In this document: one piece after another, positions 3,424-30,642 of the stretch
Position numbering within the stretch: the first letter of the stretch is position 1
Layout: every line of letters begins with the position of its first letter
Source of the DNA: Chlamydiales bacterium
GTDB lineage: Bacteria > Chlamydiota > Chlamydiia > Chlamydiales > JAAKFR01
Direction of reading: 5' to 3'
Length of the DNA: 32,000 nt
Assembly: GCA_041395025.1 (NCBI GenBank)
Contig: JAWLBH010000001.1
Location: 990,001-1,022,000, forward strand
The notes under the pieces: model-generated
Databases searched by the model: none
Seen by the model: the letters and a program-made list of their open reading frames with translations, nothing else
Told to the model about the DNA's origin: nothing
Position numbers and translations under genes: made by a program

Positions 3424-4011
3424 TTATAAATACTTGTTCAATGTACTCCAAACTATTTCGACTTGTTTGCCACGTTCGCGTTCCCATGCTGCGGTTATCT
3501 CTTTCTGAGAGGCTTTTGGGTATTTGTCGCTGTATTTTTGCATAAAATTGAGGTAAGCCCATTCTTGCTTTGGGTTAGCTTTTCTTTGTTGTCTATTGAG
3601 GTGTTCATTTTGCCAAAATTGGGCGAACTCTGCATAAGTGGGAGGGTTACCTTCTATCCATCGATTTTTAATCCAATCTTGTCCAAATGCCGTAAAGTGA
3701 AAATGGTTTCCTACAAGACTCTTCATGAATTTTCGGGTCTTCTCATCATTTTTGTAGTTGCCATGCAAAATAAGAGTTGATGGTGCTAAAGGATAGCGTG
3801 TATTTTTCTGAGCTTTTGAAGCTGAAGGGATTTGAGGCTGCTTGAGTACGGTTCCATCTTCCAAATAGCAACAAATTCTTTGAATAATTTCTCCCTTTTT
3901 GCCCCTCTCGGGGAGAGCCAATTTTTGGCATAGCTCTTTTAGCTCGCTCATGTGCATATAATGCAGGGCATTTTTTAACATGCCCACCTTGGAAGCCGAT
4001 AGTGTCTTCAT
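3424..4011 (-). CDS. SAP-motif / DUF6434-like protein
   Basis: N-terminal 'MSELKELCQKLALPERGKKGEIIQRICCYL' is a SAP-like helix-extended-helix. The C-terminal 'FHFTAFGQDWIKNRW...YAEFAQFW' resembles the DUF6434 family as I recall it. Its ATG overlaps the upstream kinase stop as ATGA (4008-4011). Confidence 0.55.
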   Translation of the reverse strand: MKTLSASKVGMLKNALHYMHMSELKELCQKLALPERGKKGEIIQRICCYLEDGTVLKQPQIPSASKAQKNTRYPLAPSTLILHGNYKNDEKTRKFMKSLVGNHFHFTAFGQDWIKNRWIEGNPPTYAEFAQFWQNEHLNRQQRKANPKQEWAYLNFMQKYSDKYPKASQKEITAAWERERGKQVEIVWSTLNKYL

Positions 4012-4619
4012 GATGGCTCATTGGGTTTTGACTTTTCGGCAAGTGCTCTTTTGATTTTTGCGACATTTTCTTCCAGTGAATGGGCGTGGCTGTCTATTTC
4101 AAGGTCATAGGCAACGTTTTCATGAACCTTGTAGTATTGAGCCCGTGCTGAGCCAACACATCGGTCTCCTCGAGTACGTTCCCTTTCTTCCAGAATTCCT
4201 AGAGGGGTGACAACGCCGACATACAGCACATTATAATCTTTTAACACCTGCTTCCACTCTTCAACTTCAACCGTTCCGAACGCTACATCATCGATAATCA
4301 GGTTGTAATGTTGAGAGGTCAGGAGGATGGCAATATCTTTAAGGGTGCGCACAATGCGTTTTGCAAAGGGGCCAGCTCTTACATGAAAAATGCGATGTCC
4401 TTCTGGGTCAGTATCGGCCTCCCAGGAAAACCCAAGAGGCGCAGAGCCTCCTTCCCAATTGTTTATCTTAGCGGGCATGAAACCAATAATTTTATCGATG
4501 CCAAGATGGAGAAAGGGTTCTTCAAAAGAATTTTGTAAAGCCTTGGCCAATGTCGTTTTTCCTGAGCTTGAAGGGCCGTTTAAGTAAATTATTTTTTCCA
4601 TAGGTAACTCGTTTGCCAA
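4008..4619 (-). CDS. chloramphenicol-phosphotransferase-like (CPT family) P-loop kinase
   Basis: Walker A 'GPSSSGKTT' lies near the N-terminus. 'LHLGIDKIIGFMP' and 'LIIDDV' (Walker B-like) are typical of the CPT/AAA_33 kinase family. About 200 aa. Confidence 0.7.
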   Translation of the reverse strand: MANELPMEKIIYLNGPSSSGKTTLAKALQNSFEEPFLHLGIDKIIGFMPAKINNWEGGSAPLGFSWEADTDPEGHRIFHVRAGPFAKRIVRTLKDIAILLTSQHYNLIIDDVAFGTVEVEEWKQVLKDYNVLYVGVVTPLGILEERERTRGDRCVGSARAQYYKVHENVAYDLEIDSHAHSLEENVAKIKRALAEKSKPNEPS

Positions 4620-4745
4620 CAGATGATAACAGAATAGAAAATAGATTAAAAAGATGAGTAAAAATTTCTTGATTGTGCCACTAGTGTGCCAAATCAGCAG
4701 CGTTTGATTTTTTTGTCTCTGACATTACCGATTTTATCCTAGTTT

Positions 4746-4770
4746 TGCAAGGGATTTCTTATCCCTTGCA
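4746..4770. repeat. perfect 9-bp inverted repeat with 7-nt spacer (TGCAAGGGA-TTTCTTA-TCCCTTGCA), 48 nt upstream of int
   Basis: Read directly from the sequence. The two-arm, 7-nt-spacer architecture is that of a tyrosine-recombinase core site, and the arms mimic a tRNA-Leu anticodon stem. Confidence 0.6.
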
Positions 4771-4818
4771 GGCTTATCATGACTTATGTTATGGTGTCCT
4801 CAATTATCATGAGGATAC

Positions 4819-5886
4819 ATGGCTAACATTCAAGAGCGTACTTCCAAAGATGGCAAAACCACCTACCGAGTCCAGGTTCGCCTTAAAGGCTATCCATCCC
4901 AAACAGCTACTTTTGCAAGGAAAACAGATGCAAGGCGATGGGCTCAACAAATTGAAACCGCAATTCGTGAAGGACGTCATTTTAAAACAGCAGAAGCTAA
5001 AAAGCGAACTCTTGCTGAATTAATCGATAGATACATCGAGCAAGTATTGCCGAGTAAACCAAAAAGCTTTGATAAGCAACAGGCACAGCTTCTTTGGTGG
5101 AAAGAAAAGTTGGGTGCATATGCACTTGCTGATATTACACCAGCTCTCGTGGCTGAATACCGAGATTTGCTTTTGGGTGAAGTAACTTGCAGAGGGAAGA
5201 AGCGCTCTAATTCTACTGTAGTTAGGTATTTAGCTGCACTTTCCCATGCATTTACTGTAGCTATGAGGGAGTGGGGTTGGATTGAAGATTCGCCATTGCG
5301 AAAGGTCTCTAAGCCAAAAGAGCCTGGAGGGAGGGTCCGCTTTTTAGACACAGATGAACGTACTCGTCTTTTAGAAGCGTGCAAGGAGAGTAGGAACCCA
5401 TTTTTATATCCCATAGTTACGCTTGCTCTAGCGACAGGAATGCGGCGGGCAGAAATTTTGAATCTCACCTGGGGAAATGTGGACTTTGAAAGAAATAAAA
5501 TTGTTCTTTTGGAAACCAAAAATGGCGACAAGCGCATTGTGCCTCTTTCGAGTCATACTAAGGCAATTCTTTTATCAATCAGAGAGCAAAGCGATGACCC
5601 TTCATTCTTTGTTTTTCCAAGACAAAAAGGACAAAAGCCACAAAAACCAATCGATATTAGAACTGCATGGGAGGTTTCTTTAGAAAAGGCGCAGATTCGA
5701 AATTTTCGATTTCATGATTTGCGCCATTGCTGCGCTTCATATCTCTTGATGAATGGAGCTTCTCTTGCTGAGATTTCTGAAGTGCTAGGGCATCGGACTC
5801 TAGCGATGGTTAAGAGGTATGCGCATATGTCCGAAGGGCATGCTGCAAACATTGTATCAAAAATGAATGAAAATATTTTTGGGTAG
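4819..5886 (+). CDS. int: tyrosine-type site-specific integrase
   Basis: Catalytic motifs 'GMRRAEI' (Arg I), 'HDLRHCCAS' (H-x-x-R) and 'LGHRTLAMVKRYAH' (His/Tyr). The N-terminal SAM-like arm 'TYRVQVRLKGY...' is typical of phage integrases. Confidence 0.9.
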   Translation: MANIQERTSKDGKTTYRVQVRLKGYPSQTATFARKTDARRWAQQIETAIREGRHFKTAEAKKRTLAELIDRYIEQVLPSKPKSFDKQQAQLLWWKEKLGAYALADITPALVAEYRDLLLGEVTCRGKKRSNSTVVRYLAALSHAFTVAMREWGWIEDSPLRKVSKPKEPGGRVRFLDTDERTRLLEACKESRNPFLYPIVTLALATGMRRAEILNLTWGNVDFERNKIVLLETKNGDKRIVPLSSHTKAILLSIREQSDDPSFFVFPRQKGQKPQKPIDIRTAWEVSLEKAQIRNFRFHDLRHCCASYLLMNGASLAEISEVLGHRTLAMVKRYAHMSEGHAANIVSKMNENIFG

Positions 5887-5889
5887 GTT

Positions 5890-6501
5890 ATGAAAGAAAT
5901 TGAATTAAAGAGGATGTATCTTGAGCAGGAAAGAAAAATTACTCCACTGAAGCCTCATTGGTTGCAGAAGGATTTTATGCAACCATGTGAGGCTGTCTTG
6001 GTGTATTATCAAATAGAACCCGCTATGGAGCAACTTAAAGAGCGAGATATGCAAATCATAAAAGCTATCGATTATCTCGGTATCTATGATGTTTTGATGT
6101 CCTCAGAATTTATTGTGAAGTCTCCTCCCTCTATTAAGTTTGTCGATTTTGTCCAATGGGCTATCAGTAAAGGATTTGGCCTTCCAGAGCATCTGAAGCA
6201 TGTCCAACAGGGGCATGAAAGTAATCAATCTGAAGAAGAAGGTTCGGATGAGGAGGGAGTGTCCTTAAATTTATCCTCCGTCAAATTGCCTCTTCTTCTT
6301 ACGGAGTTGGCTAAACGATTGATGAAAAAAATATCACCGGAATCAAAGTATGCTTCTCTCCCTGCAAACGAAATTGTTAAATTTTCTGATGAGTTCAAGT
6401 CGTTGCGGGCGGTTGTTAGGGCTATAAGGGATGGTAAGGACTATGAGGATGAGTGGTATCAGCGTAAAACTAGCTCTGTAGGACCTCGTAAGCGTAAATA
6501 A
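5890..6501 (+). CDS. hypothetical protein (element cargo; acidic Ser/Glu-rich linker)
   Basis: A 203-aa ORF that starts 4 nt after the int stop. No motif recognised. Confidence 0.45.
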   Translation: MKEIELKRMYLEQERKITPLKPHWLQKDFMQPCEAVLVYYQIEPAMEQLKERDMQIIKAIDYLGIYDVLMSSEFIVKSPPSIKFVDFVQWAISKGFGLPEHLKHVQQGHESNQSEEEGSDEEGVSLNLSSVKLPLLLTELAKRLMKKISPESKYASLPANEIVKFSDEFKSLRAVVRAIRDGKDYEDEWYQRKTSSVGPRKRK

Positions 6502-6563
6502 ATTAATTCGACAACGTAGTTTTCAACTTTCTTTGTTGTTTTTTCTCTCAAAAACATCTTTGC

Positions 6564-6599
6564 GAATGTCATTTTCGTCTAAAATGAATGTCTTTTTCG
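6564..6599. repeat. 14-nt direct repeat pair GAATGTC(A/T)TTTTCG (6564-6577, 6586-6599), 22-nt phasing
   Basis: Read directly. Lies in the 264-nt AT-rich intergenic region upstream of the rightward element genes. Confidence 0.45.
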
Positions 6600-6644
6600 A
6601 TTTTTCTCGGCAGTGTTCTTTAGCTGTCTTCTTCTGAATCTTTG

Positions 6645-6664
6645 TGTATTTGAATATAAATACA
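6645..6664. promoter_or_regulatory. 7-bp inverted repeat TGTATTT-GAATAT-AAATACA (candidate operator)
   Basis: Read directly. Sits in the intergenic control region of the element. The ATACAATT motif recurs at 6660 and 6715, with an inverted ATTGTA at 6726. Confidence 0.35.
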
Positions 6665-6765
6665 ATTGAATCTGAACTAACAGTTCATAAATTATACTTG
6701 TAATTTCATTTTTCATACAATTCGGATTGTAAATGTTTGAAAACTAATTCAACCGTAAGGAGGTA

Positions 6766-7029
6766 GTGATGTCAAACATAGCAAACGAACTGCATGAGCG
6801 TATTTCAGTGAGAAATCTACTCACAGTTCCTCAGCTTTCTCAGAAACACCCAGCATTTAGCCAAGCTGCTTTAAGGCATTTGATATTTGATGCCAATAAC
6901 AATGGCTTCTGTTGCGTTGTAAAGAGAGTTGGCAAGAGAAAAATTTTACTGGATGAGCAAGCGTTTTTCCATTGGATAGACAAACAACAAAGTGAAAAGG
7001 GAGAAAAGAACCATGAATCCAAGAAATAA
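6766..7029 (+). CDS. excisionase/AlpA-like helix-turn-helix DNA-binding protein
   Basis: 'LLTVPQLSQKHPAFSQAALRHLI...VVKRVGKRKILLDEQAFFHWI' follows the HTH_17/excisionase pattern (LLT-x-x-E/Q...G-R/K-x-x-I/L-x-x-x-x-x-x-x-W). 'AAGGAGG' lies 6 nt upstream. Confidence 0.55.
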   Translation: MMSNIANELHERISVRNLLTVPQLSQKHPAFSQAALRHLIFDANNNGFCCVVKRVGKRKILLDEQAFFHWIDKQQSEKGEKNHESKK

Positions 7030-7041
7030 ACGCCTCTTGGA

Positions 7042-7374
7042 GTGCTAAGCAAACGGGATAGAGTATTTGTCAGCGAACTCCTCAAGTTGATAGGAGCTTT
7101 GAACCCAGCTCAAAATACACATGACCTGAGACAGGCTGGGTGGAAAATTCATACAGGGAGGGTTATAACAAAGGACCGTGACGGAAGGGTCTGTCATCCT
7201 GGATTCTATTTGTTAGAACCTGATGAAAAAGCTAGGGCATTGGAGTTCCTTCAAAAGGCTGATGGAGCGGCTGGCACCGCTCCGTCAGCGGGTGATAATT
7301 CCAAGCATCTAAACTCTAAATCATCAGATAAAGCTAATGATAGCATAGGAGGTGAAAATGACAACCTCTTATGA
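7042..7374 (+). CDS. hypothetical protein (possible small winged-helix protein)
   Basis: GTG-initiated 110-aa ORF between the HTH gene and the DUF3987 gene, overlapping the latter. No motif recognised. Confidence 0.35.
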   Translation: MLSKRDRVFVSELLKLIGALNPAQNTHDLRQAGWKIHTGRVITKDRDGRVCHPGFYLLEPDEKARALEFLQKADGAAGTAPSAGDNSKHLNSKSSDKANDSIGGENDNLL

Positions 7375-8830
7375 TTGGCAAGCCCCCATTCCTTTGGGGG
7401 CAATTGATTCACCTTCTTTCCCTGAAGGAGTCTTTCCAGATGCGATTGAAAAGTTTGTTGGGGAATTGTCTCGGTCTACAGAAACCCCGCGTGATTTAGC
7501 AGGGCTTACTATATTGGCAGCCCTAGCGACAGCCTCACACAATAAATACGTCGTTCAGGTCAAATCGGACTATCGTGAGCCGGTGAATCTTTGGACAGCA
7601 GTTGCGCTTCCTCCTGGAAGCCGAAAATCGGCTGTTTTAGCGGCTGCTATCAAACCTATCGAGAAGTATGAGAAGCAGAAGCAGAAGTTAATTGAACCCT
7701 TGATAAAAGAAATTACCTCCAGGAATAAAAGCTTGGAGGTGCGCATCAGGGAATTGCGAAATATGGTTGCCAAGGCTAAAGAGTGCGATTTTGAGGCACT
7801 TCAACAAGAAATTTTTACTCTTGAGGAGAAGATTGAGGAACCTCCTGCTTTTCCCCAGCTATGGACAAGCGATGTGACACCAGAAAATTTGGGAACACTC
7901 ATGGTCTTAAATCATGAGTGTATGGCTGTCTTAAGCGATGAGGCTGGAATTTTTGACATATTGGCTGGTAGGTATTCATCAGGCATTCCTAATTTAGATT
8001 TATTTTTAAAGAGTCACACGGGAAGTCCTGCGAGAGTAAATCGGATGGGAAGACCCCCCGATTTACTGGAGCGGGCGATTCTGACAATGGGACTGACCCC
8101 GCAACCAGATGTTTTGAAAGGGCTAGGAAAAAATCGAACCTTTAGAGGGAGGGGGTTGCTCGGAAGGTTTCTTTATGCGATGCCACGTTCAAACTTGGGG
8201 AAGCGTGATTTAAACGCATCTCCAATGTTGCCAGAAGTAGAAGCCGGCTATCATCGGGTGCTCGAAGCGATTTTAGAGCATGAAATGAGCGGTGATGCTC
8301 AATATGCCTTGAATCTTTCCCCAGAGGCATATGAAAAGTGGTTTGGTTATTCTCGTGCTATTGAGATTCAAATGGATGAGGGGGGTCCCCTTGCATTCAT
8401 GACTGATTGGGCGGGCAAGCTTGCAGGTCAAATTGCTAGAATAGGGGCTCTTATTCACATCGCAAGATATGCATCTGAAAAGCCGTGGATGCAAGCAATT
8501 TCCATGGAGGATATGGGTGCAGCTATCAAAATAGGGCACTACCTATCAAAGCATGCACAAGCTGTTTTTGACTTGATGGGGGCAGACCCAGCACTTGAGG
8601 GAGCCAAAGCTGTTCTACGCTGGGTTGCAGCGAATCGATATGAGAGCTTTACGTTCAGGGATTGCCAATATGCACATAAGAGTCGATTTAAGAAGGCTAA
8701 GGAGCTGCAAGACTCGATTGAAGTGCTTTTAGACAACTACTTCATCATCGAAGCAGAACAGGAGAAAAAGACGGGAAGACCGAGTCGGGTTCTTTATGTG
8801 AATCCATACATTTTTTGTGAGGACAAGTAG
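7358..8830 (+). CDS. DUF3987 (YfjI-like) protein of integrative elements
   Basis: N-terminal 'WQAPIPL...FPEGVFPDAIEKFVGELSRSTETPRDLAGLTILAALATA...EPVNLWTAVALPPGSRKS' matches the DUF3987 pattern. AGGAGG (7347-7352) sits 5 nt before the ATG at 7358; the track ORF starts at GTG 7352. Confidence 0.75.
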   Translation: MTTSYDWQAPIPLGAIDSPSFPEGVFPDAIEKFVGELSRSTETPRDLAGLTILAALATASHNKYVVQVKSDYREPVNLWTAVALPPGSRKSAVLAAAIKPIEKYEKQKQKLIEPLIKEITSRNKSLEVRIRELRNMVAKAKECDFEALQQEIFTLEEKIEEPPAFPQLWTSDVTPENLGTLMVLNHECMAVLSDEAGIFDILAGRYSSGIPNLDLFLKSHTGSPARVNRMGRPPDLLERAILTMGLTPQPDVLKGLGKNRTFRGRGLLGRFLYAMPRSNLGKRDLNASPMLPEVEAGYHRVLEAILEHEMSGDAQYALNLSPEAYEKWFGYSRAIEIQMDEGGPLAFMTDWAGKLAGQIARIGALIHIARYASEKPWMQAISMEDMGAAIKIGHYLSKHAQAVFDLMGADPALEGAKAVLRWVAANRYESFTFRDCQYAHKSRFKKAKELQDSIEVLLDNYFIIEAEQEKKTGRPSRVLYVNPYIFCEDK

Positions 8831-8875
8831 CCTTTTTGTGGTTTTTGTCCTTTTTGACCATAAGGAGAAGAAAAT

Positions 8876-9472
8876 ATGACCCAGAGTGTATCAAAAAATT
8901 TACCTGCTCAAGAGAAGGTAGAGGAAGTTTTTTTGAGGTATCAGTTTAGAGATAATCCTGAAACAGGGCGCAGAGAGGTATGTGGGATTGAGCTGTCGGA
9001 TAAGACAAAACCAGACTCTCCCGAATTTATTGAAAAATTGAAACTCGCTCTTAAAGGAATGACCGGCAGCAGGAACCCTGAAATAGCCGAGCGCATTGTT
9101 TCCAAGATTGCCTGGGCAATGTCTGCAGAGGACAATGAGCATCGCCTAAAAGAAGTCACGACCTTGCTTCATACTCTAGAGCCTCAAAATGAAACAGAGG
9201 CGCTGTTGTTAGGGCAATTTCTTGCTTTGCAAGATTCTGGCATACAATGCTTACACAATGCGAATTACAATGAAATGTTTTATCATAAGAAGGAACTCTT
9301 TCAGCTTTCGGTGAAGCTGTTTCGTTGTGCCAATGAGACGATGCAAACGCTATTGAAATATCGCTCTGGGGGTAAGCAGCAGATTCAGGTCATTCATGTA
9401 TCTGGGGAGGGAAAAGCAGTCATAGCAAATGAAATGAAGACGGGTGGGGTAGTGGATAAAAAAGTTACGTAA
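8876..9472 (+). CDS. hypothetical protein (element cargo)
   Basis: A 198-aa ORF with 'AAGGAGAAG' upstream of its ATG. No motif recognised. Confidence 0.5.
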   Translation: MTQSVSKNLPAQEKVEEVFLRYQFRDNPETGRREVCGIELSDKTKPDSPEFIEKLKLALKGMTGSRNPEIAERIVSKIAWAMSAEDNEHRLKEVTTLLHTLEPQNETEALLLGQFLALQDSGIQCLHNANYNEMFYHKKELFQLSVKLFRCANETMQTLLKYRSGGKQQIQVIHVSGEGKAVIANEMKTGGVVDKKVT

Positions 9473-9571
9473 GACCCCATGTATCATTGAGAGGAACTAA
9501 ACCCACAAAAGCCACAAAACTATGGGAAGATGCACAGCTAAATCGAAACGTTCAGGTGAACGGTGTAAGAA

Positions 9572-10030
9572 TTGGGCGATACAAAAGAAAGCAACGTGCC
9601 GTTTTTAGCATCCTTCATTGCTAAGAATTTACTCCCTTATAGAGGGCTAGGGACTGGTATCCGCCGTGCCCTTCAACATTGGTCGCACATTGATTTTGTC
9701 GAGGATAGAGAGGGCTGCCTCTTCACCTCAATTATTCACAGAATAAAGGTGCACTCCTCTCCAGGTAATGCTAAAAAATCAAGAAATAAAGGTGCAATAA
9801 AGGTGCAAAATACACCTATAAAAGCACCTAAAAATGCACCTTTATCTCCTCTACAAAAACAAATAATAGATCTTTTAATTGGGAATGCAAAGGCTTCGTA
9901 CGATGATATAGCCCAAGCCATAGGGAAAGACCGCAGCACAGTCATGAGGAATGTCCAGAAATTAAAGCAAGATGGGATAGTGCGCCGAATGGGGTCTAAA
10001 AAAACGGGGACTTGGGAAGTGGATATATAA
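9572..10030 (+). pseudogene. gene fragment: C-terminal part of an AlbA_2/HATPase_c_4-type putative DNA-binding regulator plus winged HTH; the N-terminal part is missing
   Basis: 'LPYRGLGTGIRRALQHWSHIDFVEDREG..F' resembles the C-terminal end of HATPase_c_4 regulators. 'LSPLQKQIIDLL..ASYDDIAQAIGKDRSTVMRNVQKLKQDGIVRR' is a MarR/AsnC-like wHTH. Only a TTG start is available and no upstream domain is present. Confidence 0.45.
9743..9845. repeat. iteron-like array of the 11-mer ATAAAGGTGCA: three direct copies, one perfect inverted copy and two degenerate inverted copies
   Basis: Direct copies lie at 9743-9753, 9786-9796 and 9797-9807. The perfect inverted copy TGCACCTTTAT lies at 9835-9845. Degenerate inverted cores are TACACCT (9811) and AGCACCT (9823), with 11-12 nt phasing. 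Confidence 0.6.
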
Positions 10031-10148
10031 ATGTCCCATTTTGTCCCTTGCTAACACAAACATCTTCTGTCAATGTAGATCATAATCCCTTGTTGTCAAT
10101 TATTCCAGGCTTTTGTAGAGTGTTCGCTTTCACAAGCATGAGTTGAGA

Positions 10149-10575
10149 ATGGCTACAATTGAAGAGCGACCTACCAAAGATGGGAAAACGCATTATCGTG
10201 CGAAAGTGCAGCTGCGGGTATCCGCCACAAAATCGTACGTTTGAAAGGAAAACCGACGCGAAGCGTTGGATTCAGCAGATGGAAGCAGCAATGCGTGAAG
10301 GACGCCATTTTAAGCATATCGAATCGCGTAAACATACTTTGTGTGATTTGGTGGATCGATTGGCTCACCAGCAGAGCAGCCCCTCTTCTTACACTTTCCC
10401 TTCCGAAAAGGGACAAAAGATACAAAAGCCCGCTGATATTCGGAGCGCCTGGGAACAAGTTCTTAAAAAGGCTGCAATCGAAGACTTCCGTTTTCATGAT
10501 CTTCACCATTCTGCAAATCACCATGAAACAGTCGTTGCCAACATGAATGAGAAGGTGTTTGGTTGGGTGCAATAA
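10149..10575 (+). pseudogene. tyrosine integrase pseudogene (frameshift plus large internal deletions)
   Basis: ATG at 10149 encodes 'MATIEERPTKDGKTHYRAKVQLR', parallel to 'MANIQERTSKDGKTTYRVQVRL' of int, then stops. Homology continues in the 10159 frame ('RKTDAKRWIQQMEAAMREGRHF', 'KGQKIQKPADIRSAWE', 'FRFHDLHHS', 'NMNEKVFG'). Most of the catalytic core is missing, with no Arg I and no Tyr region. Confidence 0.8.
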
Positions 10576-10970
10576 ATGGACGACGAAGCGATAGAACAAC
10601 GGCACTACGCCACACAAACCCGAAACCGAAAATTTAGATATGAAGAGATCAAGAACCCTTCTCTTGACATAAAATATCCAAAAATAAGGACATTATTTGC
10701 AAAAACAATCAGTTATTTCTACCCCATTTTTTGTGACAAATGCTTTACAAGATCAATTTCTACATGCAGGAAAATCTCAGCCTTCCATGTATCTAGATCC
10801 AGCAATTCGAGCGGGGATTTCCAGTTTTGCCCGCCCTGGATTTGAAGGAGAGGTCTCAGAAGGTTTAGAGGCTTTAAAAAGAGATATTGAGACAAAAAAA
10901 ATCGATCACATTATTCAACAATATGAAAGCAATTGTGGAGATTATTTATACATTAGCGCTCTAAAGGATC

Positions 10971-11606
10971 ATGATGTTGTCTCCCGATAATCCGTATCCA
11001 ATTGAAAAAGTGACTAAAGCTGTTGTCTTCCTCAAGAATTTTATTACGAACCCAAATATTCGCGTTGGAGATTATACCTATTATGATGGAAGGGACCATC
11101 CTGAAAGCTTTGAAATCGACAATGTCATTTTTGCTCGTTCGTGCAATCTAATTATTGGTAAGTTTTGTCAGCTTGCTTATGGAACAAAATTCATTTTAAG
11201 CGATGCTAATCATCAAATGAGTGGTTTCTCCACATTCCCTTTTTTTATTTTTGGCAAAATGGGAGAAGGCTGTCCTGAATGGGAAGATTATGATCTTGAT
11301 CTTCCAAATAAAGGGGATACGCAAGTTGGAAATGATGTATGGTTTGGGTATGAGTCGACCATCATGCCAGCTGTGAAGATTGGAGATGGGGCGATTATTG
11401 CTGCGAAAGCGGTGGTAACGAAGGATGTGTCCCCCTATACCATTGTAGGAGGCAACCCTGCTAGGGCGATTCGAAACAGGTTTTCTGATGAAGTCATTCA
11501 ACAGCTCCTTGCTATACAGTGGTGGGAATGGGACTATGAAAAGATCACACGCAATATTTCTGCTATTGTGGGGGCAAATATACAAGAACTCCTGCATGCA
11601 AAATGA
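10971..11606 (+). CDS. Vat-family streptogramin A O-acetyltransferase (xenobiotic acetyltransferase, hexapeptide-repeat)
   Basis: 'PYPIE...VGDYTYYD', 'IGKFCQLAYGTKFIL..ANHQMSGFSTFPF', 'KGDTQVGNDVWFGYESTIMPAVKIGDGAIIAAKAVVTKDVSPYTIVGGNPA..IR.RF' and 'IQWWEW' align closely with Vat(D)/SatA-type proteins as I recall them. Confidence 0.85.
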   Translation: MMLSPDNPYPIEKVTKAVVFLKNFITNPNIRVGDYTYYDGRDHPESFEIDNVIFARSCNLIIGKFCQLAYGTKFILSDANHQMSGFSTFPFFIFGKMGEGCPEWEDYDLDLPNKGDTQVGNDVWFGYESTIMPAVKIGDGAIIAAKAVVTKDVSPYTIVGGNPARAIRNRFSDEVIQQLLAIQWWEWDYEKITRNISAIVGANIQELLHAK

Positions 11607-11785
11607 GGTGTATCCAGAGACGCGAATTCGCAAACATGACAAGTGTTTATGGAACAAAAATGGGACATTTTTTGGCAAAAAATGAGAATGAATAGCAAAG
11701 AATGACAGCTGCAAAGTTTTCAGAAGTTTCTGTTGGATAAGTTGTTATGTATTGTGAATCGTTGGTCAGTTTTTAAAACGGAAGA

Positions 11786-11837
11786 CTTAAAATCCCTTGG
11801 GCTTTTGCCTGTGCGGGTTCGAGTCCCGCTCTGAGCA
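11786..11837 (+). other. 3' fragment of tRNA-Leu(UAA), anticodon loop to discriminator base; no 5' half (att-site remnant)
   Basis: Contains loop CTTAAAA, stem strand TCCCT, long variable arm GGGC-TTTT-GCCT, T-arm GCGGG-TTCGAGT-CCCGC, acceptor strand TCTGAGC and discriminator A. No complementary GCTCAGA and no D-arm occur upstream. Confidence 0.75.
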
Positions 11838-12377
11838 AATTTATCTTCAGGTGTTTAGGTTAAATATTTATATTCAAGAGTTTCAAATGTTTGTGGCAAA
11901 CTGATGGCACAAATTCAGATGAAAAACAATGAAAATTTTAAATTCTCTGGGGTAGTATATGGTGTTGCAATTTGTTGCCCTACCTTTGGAGGTTTTTATG
12001 CGAAAGGTACTCTTGACTCTCAAAACAGTGGAACACTCCGATTAATAAGAGTTTCTCTTAGTTCAGAACCACAGATCGAAAGTGCTCCTCTGAGATAACT
12101 GTAGTCCAGGCAATAGTCTATCTGTGGTATCTATTCTAGGAAGACAAGAAATTGAGCTAGTGAAGTTGCACAGTCTTTTAAATCAGCAATATTCATCTGA
12201 ATACGAAAAACAGTTATGTTAAATACCTATCTAGGTTTTCAAAAACTCACCCCCATTTCTTTTAGAGGAATGAAGAGGTTAAAGCGCCTTGATGATGAAT
12301 GTTTAAGATTTTTTATTGACTATAGATGATTATATATTTAGAATTTGCGAGAAAATTTTTCAAAAATAGGTCGTATC

Positions 12378-22854: not shown

Positions 22855-25098
22855 TTAAGCTTCCTGTTTTGGATAGTAAATTTTGCGTGGTTTCGCTCCT
22901 TCTGATGGTCCAATCACTCCTTTTGCTTGGAGTTCATCCATCAAACCAGCAGCACGTGCATAACCGATTTTGAGCTTTCTTTGTAAGAAAGTTGTTGAAG
23001 CATTTCCTGTCTCAAAGATAAGAGCTTTTGCTTCTTCATACAAAGGAGTAGGTTGATAAACATCATCTCCCTCTTCTATTGAAGATTGTTGGTATGTTTC
23101 AAATGAGGGGATCAGGTAATTAGTTGAAGCTTGAGAACAAATATAGTGAATAATAGTGTTAATATCCTCGTCTCGTATAAATGCTCCTTGAGCACGCAAT
23201 AAGTTTGAAGTACCTGGAGGTAAAAAGAGCAAATCTCCATTCCCTAAAAGTGATTCAGCCCCATTTTCATCGATAATAATCTGACTGTTAATGCGACTAG
23301 AAACTTTGAAGGCAATACGACAGGGAAAATTGGCTTTGATCAAACCAGTGATTACTTCTCGTGAGGGGCGTTGTGTAGCAAGAATCATATGAATCCCAAC
23401 TGCCCGAGCCATTTGAGCAATACGAGCAATGGGTGTTTCGATATCACTAGAAGAAACCATCATTAGATCAGCTAACTCATCAATAATCACAACGATATAG
23501 GGAAGCTGATCAGGAATATCTAGATCTAGAGAATCTTCTAGCTGTCGATGAATTTTTCGTGTATTGAAGCCATGAATATTACGTATTCCCAATTGACGAA
23601 AAATTTCGTAACGTCTTTCCATCTCTTTGACAAGCCAATTGAGGGCAGCAGCCGATCCTCTCGGCTCAGTAATGACCGGAGCAAGCATATGAGGAAGATG
23701 GGTATAGGCTGTCAATTCAACTTTTTTTGGATCGATCATCACAATCTTAATTTCATTAGGATGAGCATTCATTACCAGTGACATGACAATCGTATTAATG
23801 CAGACAGATTTACCTGAACCCGTTGCCCCGGCAATAATTAAATGGGGCATTTTGGTGAGATCTGTCCAAATATCATTCCCATTGACAATTTTCCCAAGTA
23901 AAAGAGGAATATGGGCTTTTTTATGACTTCTTTGATAATTTTCAAGTAATTCACGAAAACTAACTTCCTGAGGTTTTGGACTAGGAATTTCAATCCCTAC
24001 AGCAGCTTTTCCAGGAATGGGAGCAATAATTCGAATGGATTTTGCTTCCATATTGAGTGCAATGTCATTCTCAAGAGTTTTAATTTTTTGGACTTTGACA
24101 CCAACTGCTGGATGAACTTCAAAAGAGGCAACAGTAGGTCCACAATGAATATCCCCTACTTTGGCTTCAATCCCAAAACTTAAAAGCGTCTCTTCTAAAA
24201 TCTCAGCCTGTCTTTTTAAATCGTTTTTAAGAGAAGAAGAATCGATAGGAGAAATCTCTGTGAGAAGGGAAGAAGGAGGTAGAAGATAGTTCTTTGAGGA
24301 CACTTCTTGTTTAGCTAAAGAGGGAAGGTGAGAGGAGGTATTGTTAGACTTTTCGGGAAGTCTAATACAAGTTTCTCGTTTCAATGGATCATCACGAATA
24401 AGGACCGGTTTATTGGTCTGTTGTAAATTCACCCGCGCAGGCTTTAAGGGTTTTTTGAATTGGAAGTGCCAGAAAGAAATAGATCTCCTATAGAGTCTTT
24501 TTATGATTCTAGCCAAATAAGAGATGGGCATTTCAATAAGCAGTATAGTCGCAGAAAAACACAGTAAGCAAGAGAGAATAAAGGTGCCAAAGCCTCCAAA
24601 TATATTTTTCAAATTCACAGCTGTTTCCGAATAGATATGATGAAAAGGTACTCCTCCAAGATAATGACAATACCTTTCTGAATCGTAAAAAGCTCCATGT
24701 GGATAGTAATCGGAGTAAATCCACCTTTGAAAAATAGACGCCATCCATGGATGAGAATAAGCAAGTTGTGCTAAAAGAGTCGCTGTAGCAATAAGCAAAA
24801 GAAAAAAATAACAGAGTTTATATCTTGGATGTCTGATAGGTTGTTTTCTCGTCATCTTCCAACCAAACCATCCGCAAAAAAAAGGAATAAGTAAACTCGC
24901 AAGACCAAAGAGATAATTCGCACACCATCCCATAATATGGCCCAAAAGACCCAGCCAGTTCTTGGTTGAGTCTCGATCATGATAGCTCAAAAGACTCAAA
25001 GCAAGCAAAAGAGAAAATATCAGTAAGAAAAAACCTTGAGTGGAATAGAAATATTCAAGATGAGGTGGTTTACGAGAGGATTTTTTTTCATTTTTCAT
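22855..25098 (-). CDS. ftsK: DNA translocase FtsK
   Basis: N-terminal TM segments, Walker A 'GATGSGKS', Walker B 'VVIIDELADLM', and the gamma wHTH 'STTFLQRKLKIGYARAAGLMDELQAKGVIG'. Confidence 0.92.
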   Translation of the reverse strand: MKNEKKSSRKPPHLEYFYSTQGFFLLIFSLLLALSLLSYHDRDSTKNWLGLLGHIMGWCANYLFGLASLLIPFFCGWFGWKMTRKQPIRHPRYKLCYFFLLLIATATLLAQLAYSHPWMASIFQRWIYSDYYPHGAFYDSERYCHYLGGVPFHHIYSETAVNLKNIFGGFGTFILSCLLCFSATILLIEMPISYLARIIKRLYRRSISFWHFQFKKPLKPARVNLQQTNKPVLIRDDPLKRETCIRLPEKSNNTSSHLPSLAKQEVSSKNYLLPPSSLLTEISPIDSSSLKNDLKRQAEILEETLLSFGIEAKVGDIHCGPTVASFEVHPAVGVKVQKIKTLENDIALNMEAKSIRIIAPIPGKAAVGIEIPSPKPQEVSFRELLENYQRSHKKAHIPLLLGKIVNGNDIWTDLTKMPHLIIAGATGSGKSVCINTIVMSLVMNAHPNEIKIVMIDPKKVELTAYTHLPHMLAPVITEPRGSAAALNWLVKEMERRYEIFRQLGIRNIHGFNTRKIHRQLEDSLDLDIPDQLPYIVVIIDELADLMMVSSSDIETPIARIAQMARAVGIHMILATQRPSREVITGLIKANFPCRIAFKVSSRINSQIIIDENGAESLLGNGDLLFLPPGTSNLLRAQGAFIRDEDINTIIHYICSQASTNYLIPSFETYQQSSIEEGDDVYQPTPLYEEAKALIFETGNASTTFLQRKLKIGYARAAGLMDELQAKGVIGPSEGAKPRKIYYPKQEA

Positions 25099-25257: not shown

Positions 25258-25332
<75 letters not shown>

Positions 25333-25583
25333 ATCTATGGAAGCATTTTGTGAAATCTAAGATAAAAAGTCAATTTCTCTGGGTCAATTAGGCTAAGGCA
25401 AGTCGTAATCTAGAATCAAGTTGAATAAAAGATATCGAAGATATTTTTTTTTGTGAAAAAATTAAATTGCTGAAAAAAAAGAGATTTGAGTATCGTATTG
25501 TCTTCTCATTAAAGAGACCTTCAAAAAAGGCAATGAGAATACCATCGTTATTAAGCGATGGATGCTAAAAAACAGCAATATAT

Positions 25584-25615
25584 CACTTGACAGCAAAAAT
25601 GAGACAAAATGCAGA
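25584..25615 (+). other. 5' strand of the 16S precursor processing stem
   Basis: CACTTGACAGCAAAAATGAGACAAAATGCAGA pairs with 27288-27319. 29 positions are Watson-Crick, with one G.U and two mismatches. Confidence 0.7.
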
Positions 25616-25689
25616 TCCAATCTTTATGGTTGGAAAGACTTATGAAAATCAAGCTTAAGCTTGGTTTCCGTTAATTTTAAATTTATTTT

Positions 25690-27240
<1,551 letters not shown>

Positions 27241-27287
27241 TAAGGACAAGATAGATCGGTTTTCCGATCGTCTAGGTTGAGAGTCAG

Positions 27288-27319
27288 TCTGTATTTTGTC
27301 TCTTTTTTGCTGTGAAGTG
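27288..27319 (+). other. 3' strand of the 16S precursor processing stem
   Basis: TCTGTATTTTGTCTCTTTTTTGCTGTGAAGTG is complementary to 25584-25615. Confidence 0.7.
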
Positions 27320-27357
27320 TTTCTGGATAGTTTAGTAATTCAAGCAAATAAACAATT

Positions 27358-27384
27358 TCACTTAGAATAAGTGGCGCTTGAAGA
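27358..27384 (+). other. 5' strand of the 23S precursor processing stem
   Basis: TCACTTAGAATAAGTGGCGCTTGAAGA pairs with 30472-30498. Both differences are G.U pairs. Confidence 0.7.
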
Positions 27385-27441
27385 ATATATCATATATACG
27401 TTGAAAAATTAAAATCTTAGCAATTTGCACAAAATTTTTGT

Positions 27442-30388
<2,947 letters not shown>

Positions 30389-30471
30389 TTTTTCATTGCA
30401 TTTGGCCGAGAAGGCTGAATAAGTGGTTTAAGTTTTCGCAAAAAGCGATTTTTCATTCTGTAGAATGAGTA

Positions 30472-30498
30472 TCTTCAAGCGTCATTTATTCTAAGTGA
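30472..30498 (+). other. 3' strand of the 23S precursor processing stem
   Basis: TCTTCAAGCGTCATTTATTCTAAGTGA is complementary to 27358-27384. Confidence 0.7.
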
Positions 30499-30526
30499 GT
30501 CTTTTGTTGATTTACTAAACAAATTT

Positions 30527-30642
30527 TCTTGGTGGCAATAGAGAAGGGGGTACACCTGATCCCATTCCGAACTCAGAAGTTAAGTCCTTCATCGCCGATG
30601 GTACTGCACACAAGAGTGTGGAAGAGTAGGACGCTGCCAAGT
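30527..30642 (+). rRNA. rrf: 5S ribosomal RNA
   Basis: Helix I forms between CTTGGTGGC and GCTGCCAAG. Conserved 'CCGAACTCAGAAGTTAAG' and 'GAGAGTAGG'-like 'GAAGAGTAGGAC' are present. Confidence 0.9.

Follow-up and report, generated by a model that had tools for sequence, protein, structure and literature searches.

Arrays of short DNA repeats bound by winged-helix proteins are known from the iterons of plasmid Rep proteins and from the TubR–tubC system, in which the array is built of 12-bp repeats. An array that may be likened to them in its geometry, with short words phased at 11–12 bp in direct and inverted orientation beside a segment coding for a winged helix-turn-helix (wHTH) domain, lies at positions 9743–9845 of a 32,000-nucleotide stretch of DNA from a Chlamydiales bacterium (GenBank assembly GCA_041395025.1, contig JAWLBH010000001.1, positions 990,001 to 1,022,000 of the forward strand), which is called the window below. 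Unlike iterons and tubC, this array lies in coding sequence, where its words specify a protein linker; they are candidate binding sites only, belong to a defence-type gene and not to a replicon or a partition locus, and are missing from the homologue of the neighbouring DUF3987/integrase island. The array is in all probability an element intrinsic to the family of genes in which it is found, conserved at the level of nucleotides and situated outside the island.

The gene in question is a remnant of one coding for a prokaryotic Schlafen (pSlfn) protein with a HisKinase and a helix-turn-helix (HTH) domain. In the portions of a recent survey that deal with these proteins, the Schlafen–HisKinase–HTH architecture is said to comprise 19.2% of pSlfn proteins and is not among the four architectures chosen for phage-defence tests, and Schlafen nucleases are described as cleaving tRNAs (Nat Microbiol 2026, PMC13056530). 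With respect to the architecture as given there, the homologues discussed below have the whole domain set and the window fragment aligns to its C-terminal third, but what the fragment retains is limited to the wHTH, the linker before it, and the final part of HATPase_c_4. Both the gene family and the type of island are already known. No description of conserved linker-coding words was found in searches of the literature on AlbA_2/HATPase_c_4 proteins, intragenic binding sites, and linker repeats, and conserved linker-coding repeats are not mentioned in those places of the survey where the terms linker, tandem repeat, HTH, or HisKinase occur (PMC13056530).

The array consists of four perfect words and two forward ones (the inverted copies F1 and F2) decayed by three substitutions relative to the archetype, in the following order:

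9743–9753, plus strand: word copy R1, ATAAAGGTGCA, read as I-K-V-H, which corresponds to the family motif RIKVQ at the end of HATPase_c_4.
9786–9796, plus strand: word copy R2, ATAAAGGTGCA, in the other frame, read as (N)-K-G-A, the family motif NKGA.
9797–9807, plus strand: word copy R3, ATAAAGGTGCA, read as I-K-V-Q, the family motif LKVQ, in an 11-nt tandem with R2.
9811–9820, minus strand: decayed inverted word F1, TACACCTATA (TACACCT), read as T-P-I.
9823–9832, minus strand: decayed inverted word F2, AGCACCTAAA (AGCACCT), read as A-P-K, 12 nt after F1.
9835–9845, minus strand: perfect inverted word F3, TGCACCTTTAT, read as A-P-L-(S), 12 nt after F2.

On direct reading, the exact word ATAAAGGTGCA occurs on the plus strand at 9743, 9786, and 9797 and nowhere else in the window, and TGCACCTTTAT is its exact reverse complement. 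With one mismatch allowed, five matches to ATAAAGGTGCA are found in the 32 kb versus 0.74 expected, a number attained by none of 100 shuffled sequences, and the sole match outside the array is the site at 24578. The same repeats were recovered by repeat finding in the window (families D1, I3, I10, and I11). The archetype of F1 in the family is TGCACCTATA, coding for N-A-P-I, as seen in the Parachlamydiales locus L066 and in others. The direct copies span two reading frames of the open reading frame (ORF) 9572–10030, giving IKVH, NKGA, and IKVQ, and the inverted ones are translated as TP, AP, and APL; since the copies are read in different frames and as different peptides, the repetition is a feature of the DNA and not of the peptide. 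In all this the original prediction, which had been made from the letters of the window, stands: the coordinates and the 12-nt spacing of the inverted copies hold, direct and inverted copies do encode different peptides, the array does lie in a gene fragment, with a segment coding for a wHTH close downstream of it, and the geometry expected of a protein-binding array, a dyad with phased direct copies, is present in the sequence. An antisense ORF of 69 aa overlaps the array (9736–9945, minus strand), and one antisense frame of the (AATGCACCTATA)n repeat holds a stop codon.

A search for homologues of the fragment, with one genome taken per species, yielded 80 loci at 36–58% identity from Chlamydiae, Desulfobacterota, Hydrogenedentota, Planctomycetota, Legionellales, Verrucomicrobia, archaea, and others. 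The homologous genes are mostly 470–520 aa long, and the full-length examples code for the SLFN_AlbA_2, HATPase_c_4, and HTH_24 domains, with HATPase_c_4 (PF13749) directly upstream of the wHTH. The family consensus of the linker joining the last two is RIKVQ...NKGALKVQ...NAPINAPLS, which in DNA is the word of the window in both orientations. For the subfamily to which the window belongs, this word can be written as TGCACCT(A/T)TA (complement TA(A/T)AGGTGCA), and it is present in direct copies phased at 11–12 nt and in inverted copies; the 9-mer GCACCTWTA or its complement was matched 59 times in 34 kb of homologous stretches versus 7 times in 760 kb of flanks, the latter density being close to chance level. 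The window fragment thus has the linker feature as defined in this analysis, namely 12-nt tetrapeptide repeats with class-specific words conserved in nucleotides. L066 shares the layout of the window: its three reverse words are read as RIKVQ, DKGA, and LKVQ, and the three forward words that come after them as APINAPINAPL. In L036 the array is inverted, read as KGAFKGAFKGAL and giving the peptide KGAF. Altogether one DNA word is read as NKGA, LKVQ, NAPI or NAPL, and KGAF, and also, in a third frame or in other contexts, as ACTF and INDLLN. The third-frame word lies inside HATPase_c_4, where GCA TGC ACC TTT A codes for an ACTF variant of DDRxxCxF; seven loci (L006, L012, L019, L022, L023, L030, and L035) share it codon for codon, at +118 of the match.

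The conservation of the words was assessed in a codon-column test on 28 sequences, in which the expected values came from the codon usage of each gene and the columns of the flanking domains served as an internal control. In these well-conserved columns of HATPase_c_4 and the wHTH, the most frequent codon reaches about the count predicted from the usage of the gene, and the synonymous sites of the flanking domains are therefore saturated. The linker codons, by contrast with their own expected values, are nearly fixed: ATA in 15 of 15 cases (3.3 expected), CCT in 23 of 24 (10 expected), AAT in 21 of 21 (14.7 expected), TTA in 18 of 21 (5 expected), and AAG in 12 of 13 (4.1 expected). Tested motif by motif, the excess has z values of 4.6–10.6 and holds also in genes of 55–60% G+C. 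The codon results are free of search bias, because the patterns by which the loci were retrieved lie outside the linker. In what is the second most common prokaryotic Schlafen architecture, the DNA coding for a linker is kept letter for letter across bacterial phyla, and this constraint on synonymous sites demands an explanation whatever the mechanism. It suggests that the DNA itself is read, probably by the DNA-binding domain of the protein encoded there.

The near-fixed codons could also be accounted for at the level of translation or of the peptide, if ribosome pausing or a tRNA-dependent feedback had selected the codons (ATA, TTA, AGT, and others) of a tetrapeptide repeat (NAPI, KSSP, KGSE, and similar ones); an instance would be a gene whose own translation is sensitive to the cleavage of tRNAs by the Schlafen nuclease. 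The repeats do keep the reading frame at their period of 12 nt, GC-rich hosts seldom use the fixed codons, and Schlafen nucleases are stated to cleave tRNAs (PMC13056530). Such a constraint is nevertheless distinctly unlikely, as it leaves unexplained both the word in other frames or on the other strand (NKGA, LKVQ, KGAF, ACTF, INDLLN) and the covariation of forward and reverse words described below; moreover, in AT-rich chlamydial hosts the fixed codons are, judging from genome composition, presumably not rare, and among linker classes the peptides differ radically (KSSP, KTLG, KMTV) and the nucleotides stay related.

The forward and reverse words vary in concert. Their central triplets (TAAAG-xxx-CA in the reverse word and TG-xxx-CTWTA in the forward word) form complementary pairs inside individual genes. 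Four such pairs are seen: GTG/CAC in many genes, GTT/AAC in L008, L011, L023, and L026, where a synonymous change of Val is paired with a change of Ala to Glu, GGG/CCC in L007, where a change of Val to Gly is paired with a synonymous change of Ala, and ATG/CAT in L003 and L022. In total, 18 of 42 reverse words are matched by their complement in the same gene versus 8.8 expected on permutation of genes (P~0.0008, with phylogeny uncorrected).

Complementary arms raise the question of base pairing, by which the inverted words would act as an mRNA hairpin (pausing translation between domains, signalling stability or processing, or offering the Schlafen RNase a target in its own message) or as a DNA cruciform. 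In the window the potential for a hairpin is strong, with −14.3 kcal/mol (z −7.6) for DNA at 9780–9850 and −29.1 kcal/mol (z −4.9) for RNA at 9730–9860, and the covariation keeps the arms complementary, with pairs nested in L003 and a case compatible with G-U pairing in L012; folding at z below −2 relative to synonymous recoding was found in 8 of 52 linkers and in 3 of 52 control regions. However, the mean folding z in the family is −0.25 against synonymous recodings drawn from the codon usage of each gene, and strong structure is confined to arrays with both orientations: those lacking inverted copies often have less structure than the null, with codons equally fixed. There are also A-C mismatches between the arms in L001 and L077, and a search of 9300–10300 against Rfam gave no family, the only hit being mir-268 below threshold (E 0.92). 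Base pairing is thus an unlikely role for the words, and a structured regulatory RNA was rejected as a candidate, with no Rfam family, a mean z of that size, and many arrays unstructured.

The gene fragment that carries the array in the window can be divided as follows:

9599–10030, plus strand: 3′ remnant of about 143 codons of a Schlafen(AlbA_2)–HATPase_c_4–wHTH gene.
9599–9740, plus strand: end of HATPase_c_4.
About 9740–9847, plus strand: linker, predicted to be disordered (AlphaFold pLDDT below 50).
About 9848–10027, plus strand: wHTH (AlphaFold pLDDT above 90).

The ORF 9572–10030 codes for 152 aa, the first nine codons of which do not derive from the Schlafen family. In Pfam, only the wHTH is recognised (HTH_24, E 2.2e-10, residues 92–138), and in the alignment the fragment has the C-terminal motif of HATPase_c_4 (LPYRGLGTG...DDRxGCxF), with L21, P22, Y23, R24, G25, L26, and G27 invariant. 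In the AlphaFold model, pLDDT is below 50 at residues 60–85 and above 90 at residues 93–150, with the recognition helix at 121–133, and structure comparison indicates that the modelled wHTH resembles DNA-binding proteins of the ArsR, MarR, Fur, and AspA types. When seven full-length homologues were compared with the window by tblastn, they matched it only at 9581/9599–10021, corresponding to homologue residues ~340–480 of ~470–490; the N-terminal two thirds of the gene, with the SLFN_AlbA_2 domain, are absent from the window by the same comparison. As only the C-terminal third survives, the gene is a remnant and not an intact member of the family: the Schlafen and ATPase parts are lost and its own start is missing, and the array persists here as a relic within a truncated gene. 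That the truncation is recent is suggested by the 143 codons left, which still form an uninterrupted frame. An exact look-up of the window protein (P0001) gave no record, and a search of PDB by sequence gave a single weak match, 3LMM. PADLOC gave domain-level matches only for the full-length homologues (a pAgo-associated region and a CasR/Csa3-type wHTH) and no match for the island proteins.

More distant subfamilies have other tetrapeptide linkers (KSSP, KSSQ, KGSE, KTPE, KTSG, KTLG, and KMTV) together with different wHTH sequences, and each class has fixed words of its own, such as AAA AGT TCN, AAA GGT TCG GAG, and AAA ACG NCG GGG. The codons of these linkers, too, are fixed, with AGT in 33 of 33 cases (5.4 expected), AAA in 32 of 33 (13.3 expected), GGT in 16 of 16 (3.9 expected), and ACG in 12 of 12 (3.2 expected). 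The peptides of the classes are radically different, but the 12-mers are still related in nucleotides; archaeal loci likewise have related class-specific words, and palindromes of the form GGTTC-N4-GAACC occur in some of the other classes. Word type and recognition helix go together: words with xAC/xAT accompany Met in the helix (T[IV]MRN) in 22 of 22 cases, and with xCC words the residue is Lys or Arg in 14 of 15 cases and Leu in the remaining one. The pairing would be chemically sensible, as Met may contact the methyl group of thymine and Lys or Arg may contact guanine, and the association, drawn from sequence comparison, is suggestive.

Recognition of the words on double-stranded DNA by the wHTH encoded directly downstream is the explanation that we favour, with a probability of roughly 45%, because it would account jointly for the conservation of the word in any frame, its presence in both orientations, and the covariation of the arms. 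It explains the two orientations better than pairing does, since a stable hairpin is not family-wide. The proposed site would comprise a palindromic core with phased flanking half-sites on duplex DNA; by binding there, the protein would bind its own gene, resulting in autoregulation or in tethering in cis, and the linker peptide would be largely a by-product of the DNA site. A more complete version can be put forward tentatively, in which the linker would be primarily a class-specific array of 10–12-bp words set in coding sequence and recognised by the wHTH encoded next to it. Binding to its own gene would then tether in cis, or autoregulate, a nuclease that is toxic; the recognition helix and the word would evolve together (Met with A:T, Lys or Arg with C:G), and the peptide would be a tolerated by-product. 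If the words are sites of the adjoining wHTH, they would provide a testable handle on the regulation or positioning of nuclease-type defence proteins, and it would be out of the ordinary for one stretch of DNA to serve both as an array of binding sites and as the code for a protein linker.

Among known systems, autoregulatory operators of the MarR/ArsR type resemble the proposed site in two respects: a palindromic core with a 3-nt spacer is present in several homologues, e.g., AGGTGCA-AAA-TGCACCT in L003, and the model of the wHTH matches ArsR-, MarR-, and Fur-type folds. In contrast to those operators, the Schlafen-gene array lies away from a promoter. The promoter and terminator scan found no site within the array, the nearest match to a promoter consensus being on the minus strand at 9891–9863, ~20 nt downstream, and the array is deep in the ORFs of homologues; a promoter-proximal palindromic operator is thus not what is seen here. 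The suggestion, made in the original prediction, of an operator for the wHTH product of 9572–10030 comes near to the favoured explanation. An internal sigma-70 promoter, considered on account of TATAAAT boxes, was rejected, as other linker classes lack the box and the promoter scan was negative.

Several points weigh against recognition by the wHTH. No second copy of the word, at a promoter for example, was found within 6 kb of any homologue, and the position of the array in full-length homologues, ~1.1 kb within the ORF, would be unusual for an operator. L077 keeps CAC-type words but has a different C-terminal wHTH, and a phasing of 12 bp differs from one helical turn. The codon and covariation statistics count related sequences as independent, and the association of Met versus Lys or Arg with the word type may stem from a single phylogenetic split. 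Finally, in the truncated gene of the window any function of the array is probably vestigial.

L077, in which a NAPL array is followed by an unrelated type of wHTH, also bears on another possibility, that the words have no binding role and are a substrate of recombination or slippage, marking the boundary of a swappable linker–wHTH module or serving variation of linker length. A swapped wHTH behind the same words is what such exchange would leave, and two tandem linker–wHTH modules, each with its own repeat array before the wHTH, are found in L025 (2946–3620) and L040 (6001–6639); the copy number of the word varies among homologues, and many loci have internal deletions with the C-terminus retained. 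This explanation is nonetheless improbable: homology-driven recombination needs no particular sequence, and retention of the word across phyla amid saturated synonymous sites is left without a cause. The last 150–210 codons, coding for the end of HATPase_c_4, the linker, and the wHTH, are retained, as in the window, in the N-terminally truncated or internally deleted loci L030, L039, L047, L051, L054, L058, L059, L063, L069, L070, and L076; this may reflect either the bias of a search anchored at the C-terminus or true keeping of the wHTH module. A link with phages was rejected as well, since the two-unit word GCACCTATAAATGCACCT had 11 matches in viral contigs, all in unrelated ORFs or short frames and with no arrays.

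The original prediction had connected the array with the DUF3987 island located upstream of it. The features of the island and of its surroundings are the following:

4054–9577, plus strand: block syntenic with the metagenome contig L092 (74% nucleotide identity over 5.5 kb), comprising a chloramphenicol-phosphotransferase-like (CPT) gene, the integrase gene 4819–5886, orf203, orf87, orf110, the gene of the DUF3987 protein 7352–8830, and orf198.
9522–9608, plus strand: truncated last gene of the island, coding for 28 aa of a small HGGxSTG-type protein, which has 82 aa in L092 (8169–8417).
10159–10575 (to ~10600), plus strand: degraded and internally deleted integrase paralogue, 76% identical in nucleotides to a part of the integrase 4819–5886.
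11784–11837, plus strand: 3′ part of tRNA-Leu(TAA), 54 nt from the anticodon loop to the acceptor end, an att-type remnant at the right end of the composite island.

An iteron-type origin or an operator of the DUF3987/integrase island, bound by DUF3987 or another island protein, was an understandable proposal, given that the array adjoins the island and contains phased direct and inverted repeats. It is, however, extremely improbable. The syntenic island in L092 stops at ~9600, before the Schlafen fragment, and L092 has no GGTGCA or TGCACC anywhere; within the window, the word is likewise absent from the syntenic block 4054–9600. Similarity to L092 tails off at ~9600–9607 and that to the Schlafen family starts at 9599, which indicates a single deletion junction at ~9600 that truncated both genes and made the ORF 9572–10030 chimeric at its 5′ end. 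The array is not at the distal end of the element, where it had been placed, but ~140 nt beyond the end of the homology to the syntenic element, in a separate, truncated gene of the Schlafen family, and its adjacency to the island results from the deletion junction. The same words are present in ordinary coding sequence of full-length homologues (~470–520 aa) of many phyla, a finding which the original prediction had named as contradicting it. Relatives of the island proteins near the 80 homologous loci are limited to a weak integrase match at L057 (27% identity), with DUF3987 and orf198 in none. The GC-skew is monotonic and gives no switch at the array, so that the signature looked for there is missing. 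Iterons were also rejected on their usual marks: repeats conserved in homologous elements beside a replication gene are lacking, as L092 is without the words, and instead of a non-coding site with an AT-rich unwinding region or a skew there is an array in coding sequence with no change of skew. For this locus a false lead is removed, and there is no satellite origin here.

The surroundings of the array resemble known tRNA-targeting islands with DUF3987 and a tyrosine integrase, as they contain an integrase, the DUF3987 protein, the HGGxSTG gene, and 3′ repeats of tRNA-Leu(TAA), but they differ from them in that the array is outside the conserved island. L092 has a full tRNA-Leu(TAA) gene and two 3′ partial copies flanking island segments (964–1046, 8555–8600, and 10396–10449), and no full tRNA-Leu gene is present in the window. 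The partial copies look like att repeats of islands that target tRNA-Leu. From the partial tRNA copy and the degraded integrase paralogue it follows that the region ~4000–11840 of the window is a composite of decaying tRNA-Leu islands, in which the degraded integrase at 10159 and the Schlafen fragment form an older island remnant. A short integrase-like stretch is found at 9496–9519, and together with the second integrase it suggests repeated insertion and decay at the site. A comparison of the left end of the island with 9380–10200 gave no att-type direct repeats longer than 10 nt. The CPT-like gene (4008–4619, minus strand) lies inside the block syntenic with L092 and has a homologue of 54% identity ~2.4 kb from the Schlafen pseudogene in L066; it may be island cargo or a conserved flank.

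Farther downstream, 25258–30642 of the window holds a minus-strand tRNA-His gene and, after it, a complete plus-strand rRNA operon (16S-23S-5S); ARAGORN detected no tRNA gene in the spacer of ~200 nt between 16S and 23S. The local genes have their closest relatives among chlamydiae, in Parachlamydiales and Rhabdochlamydiaceae.

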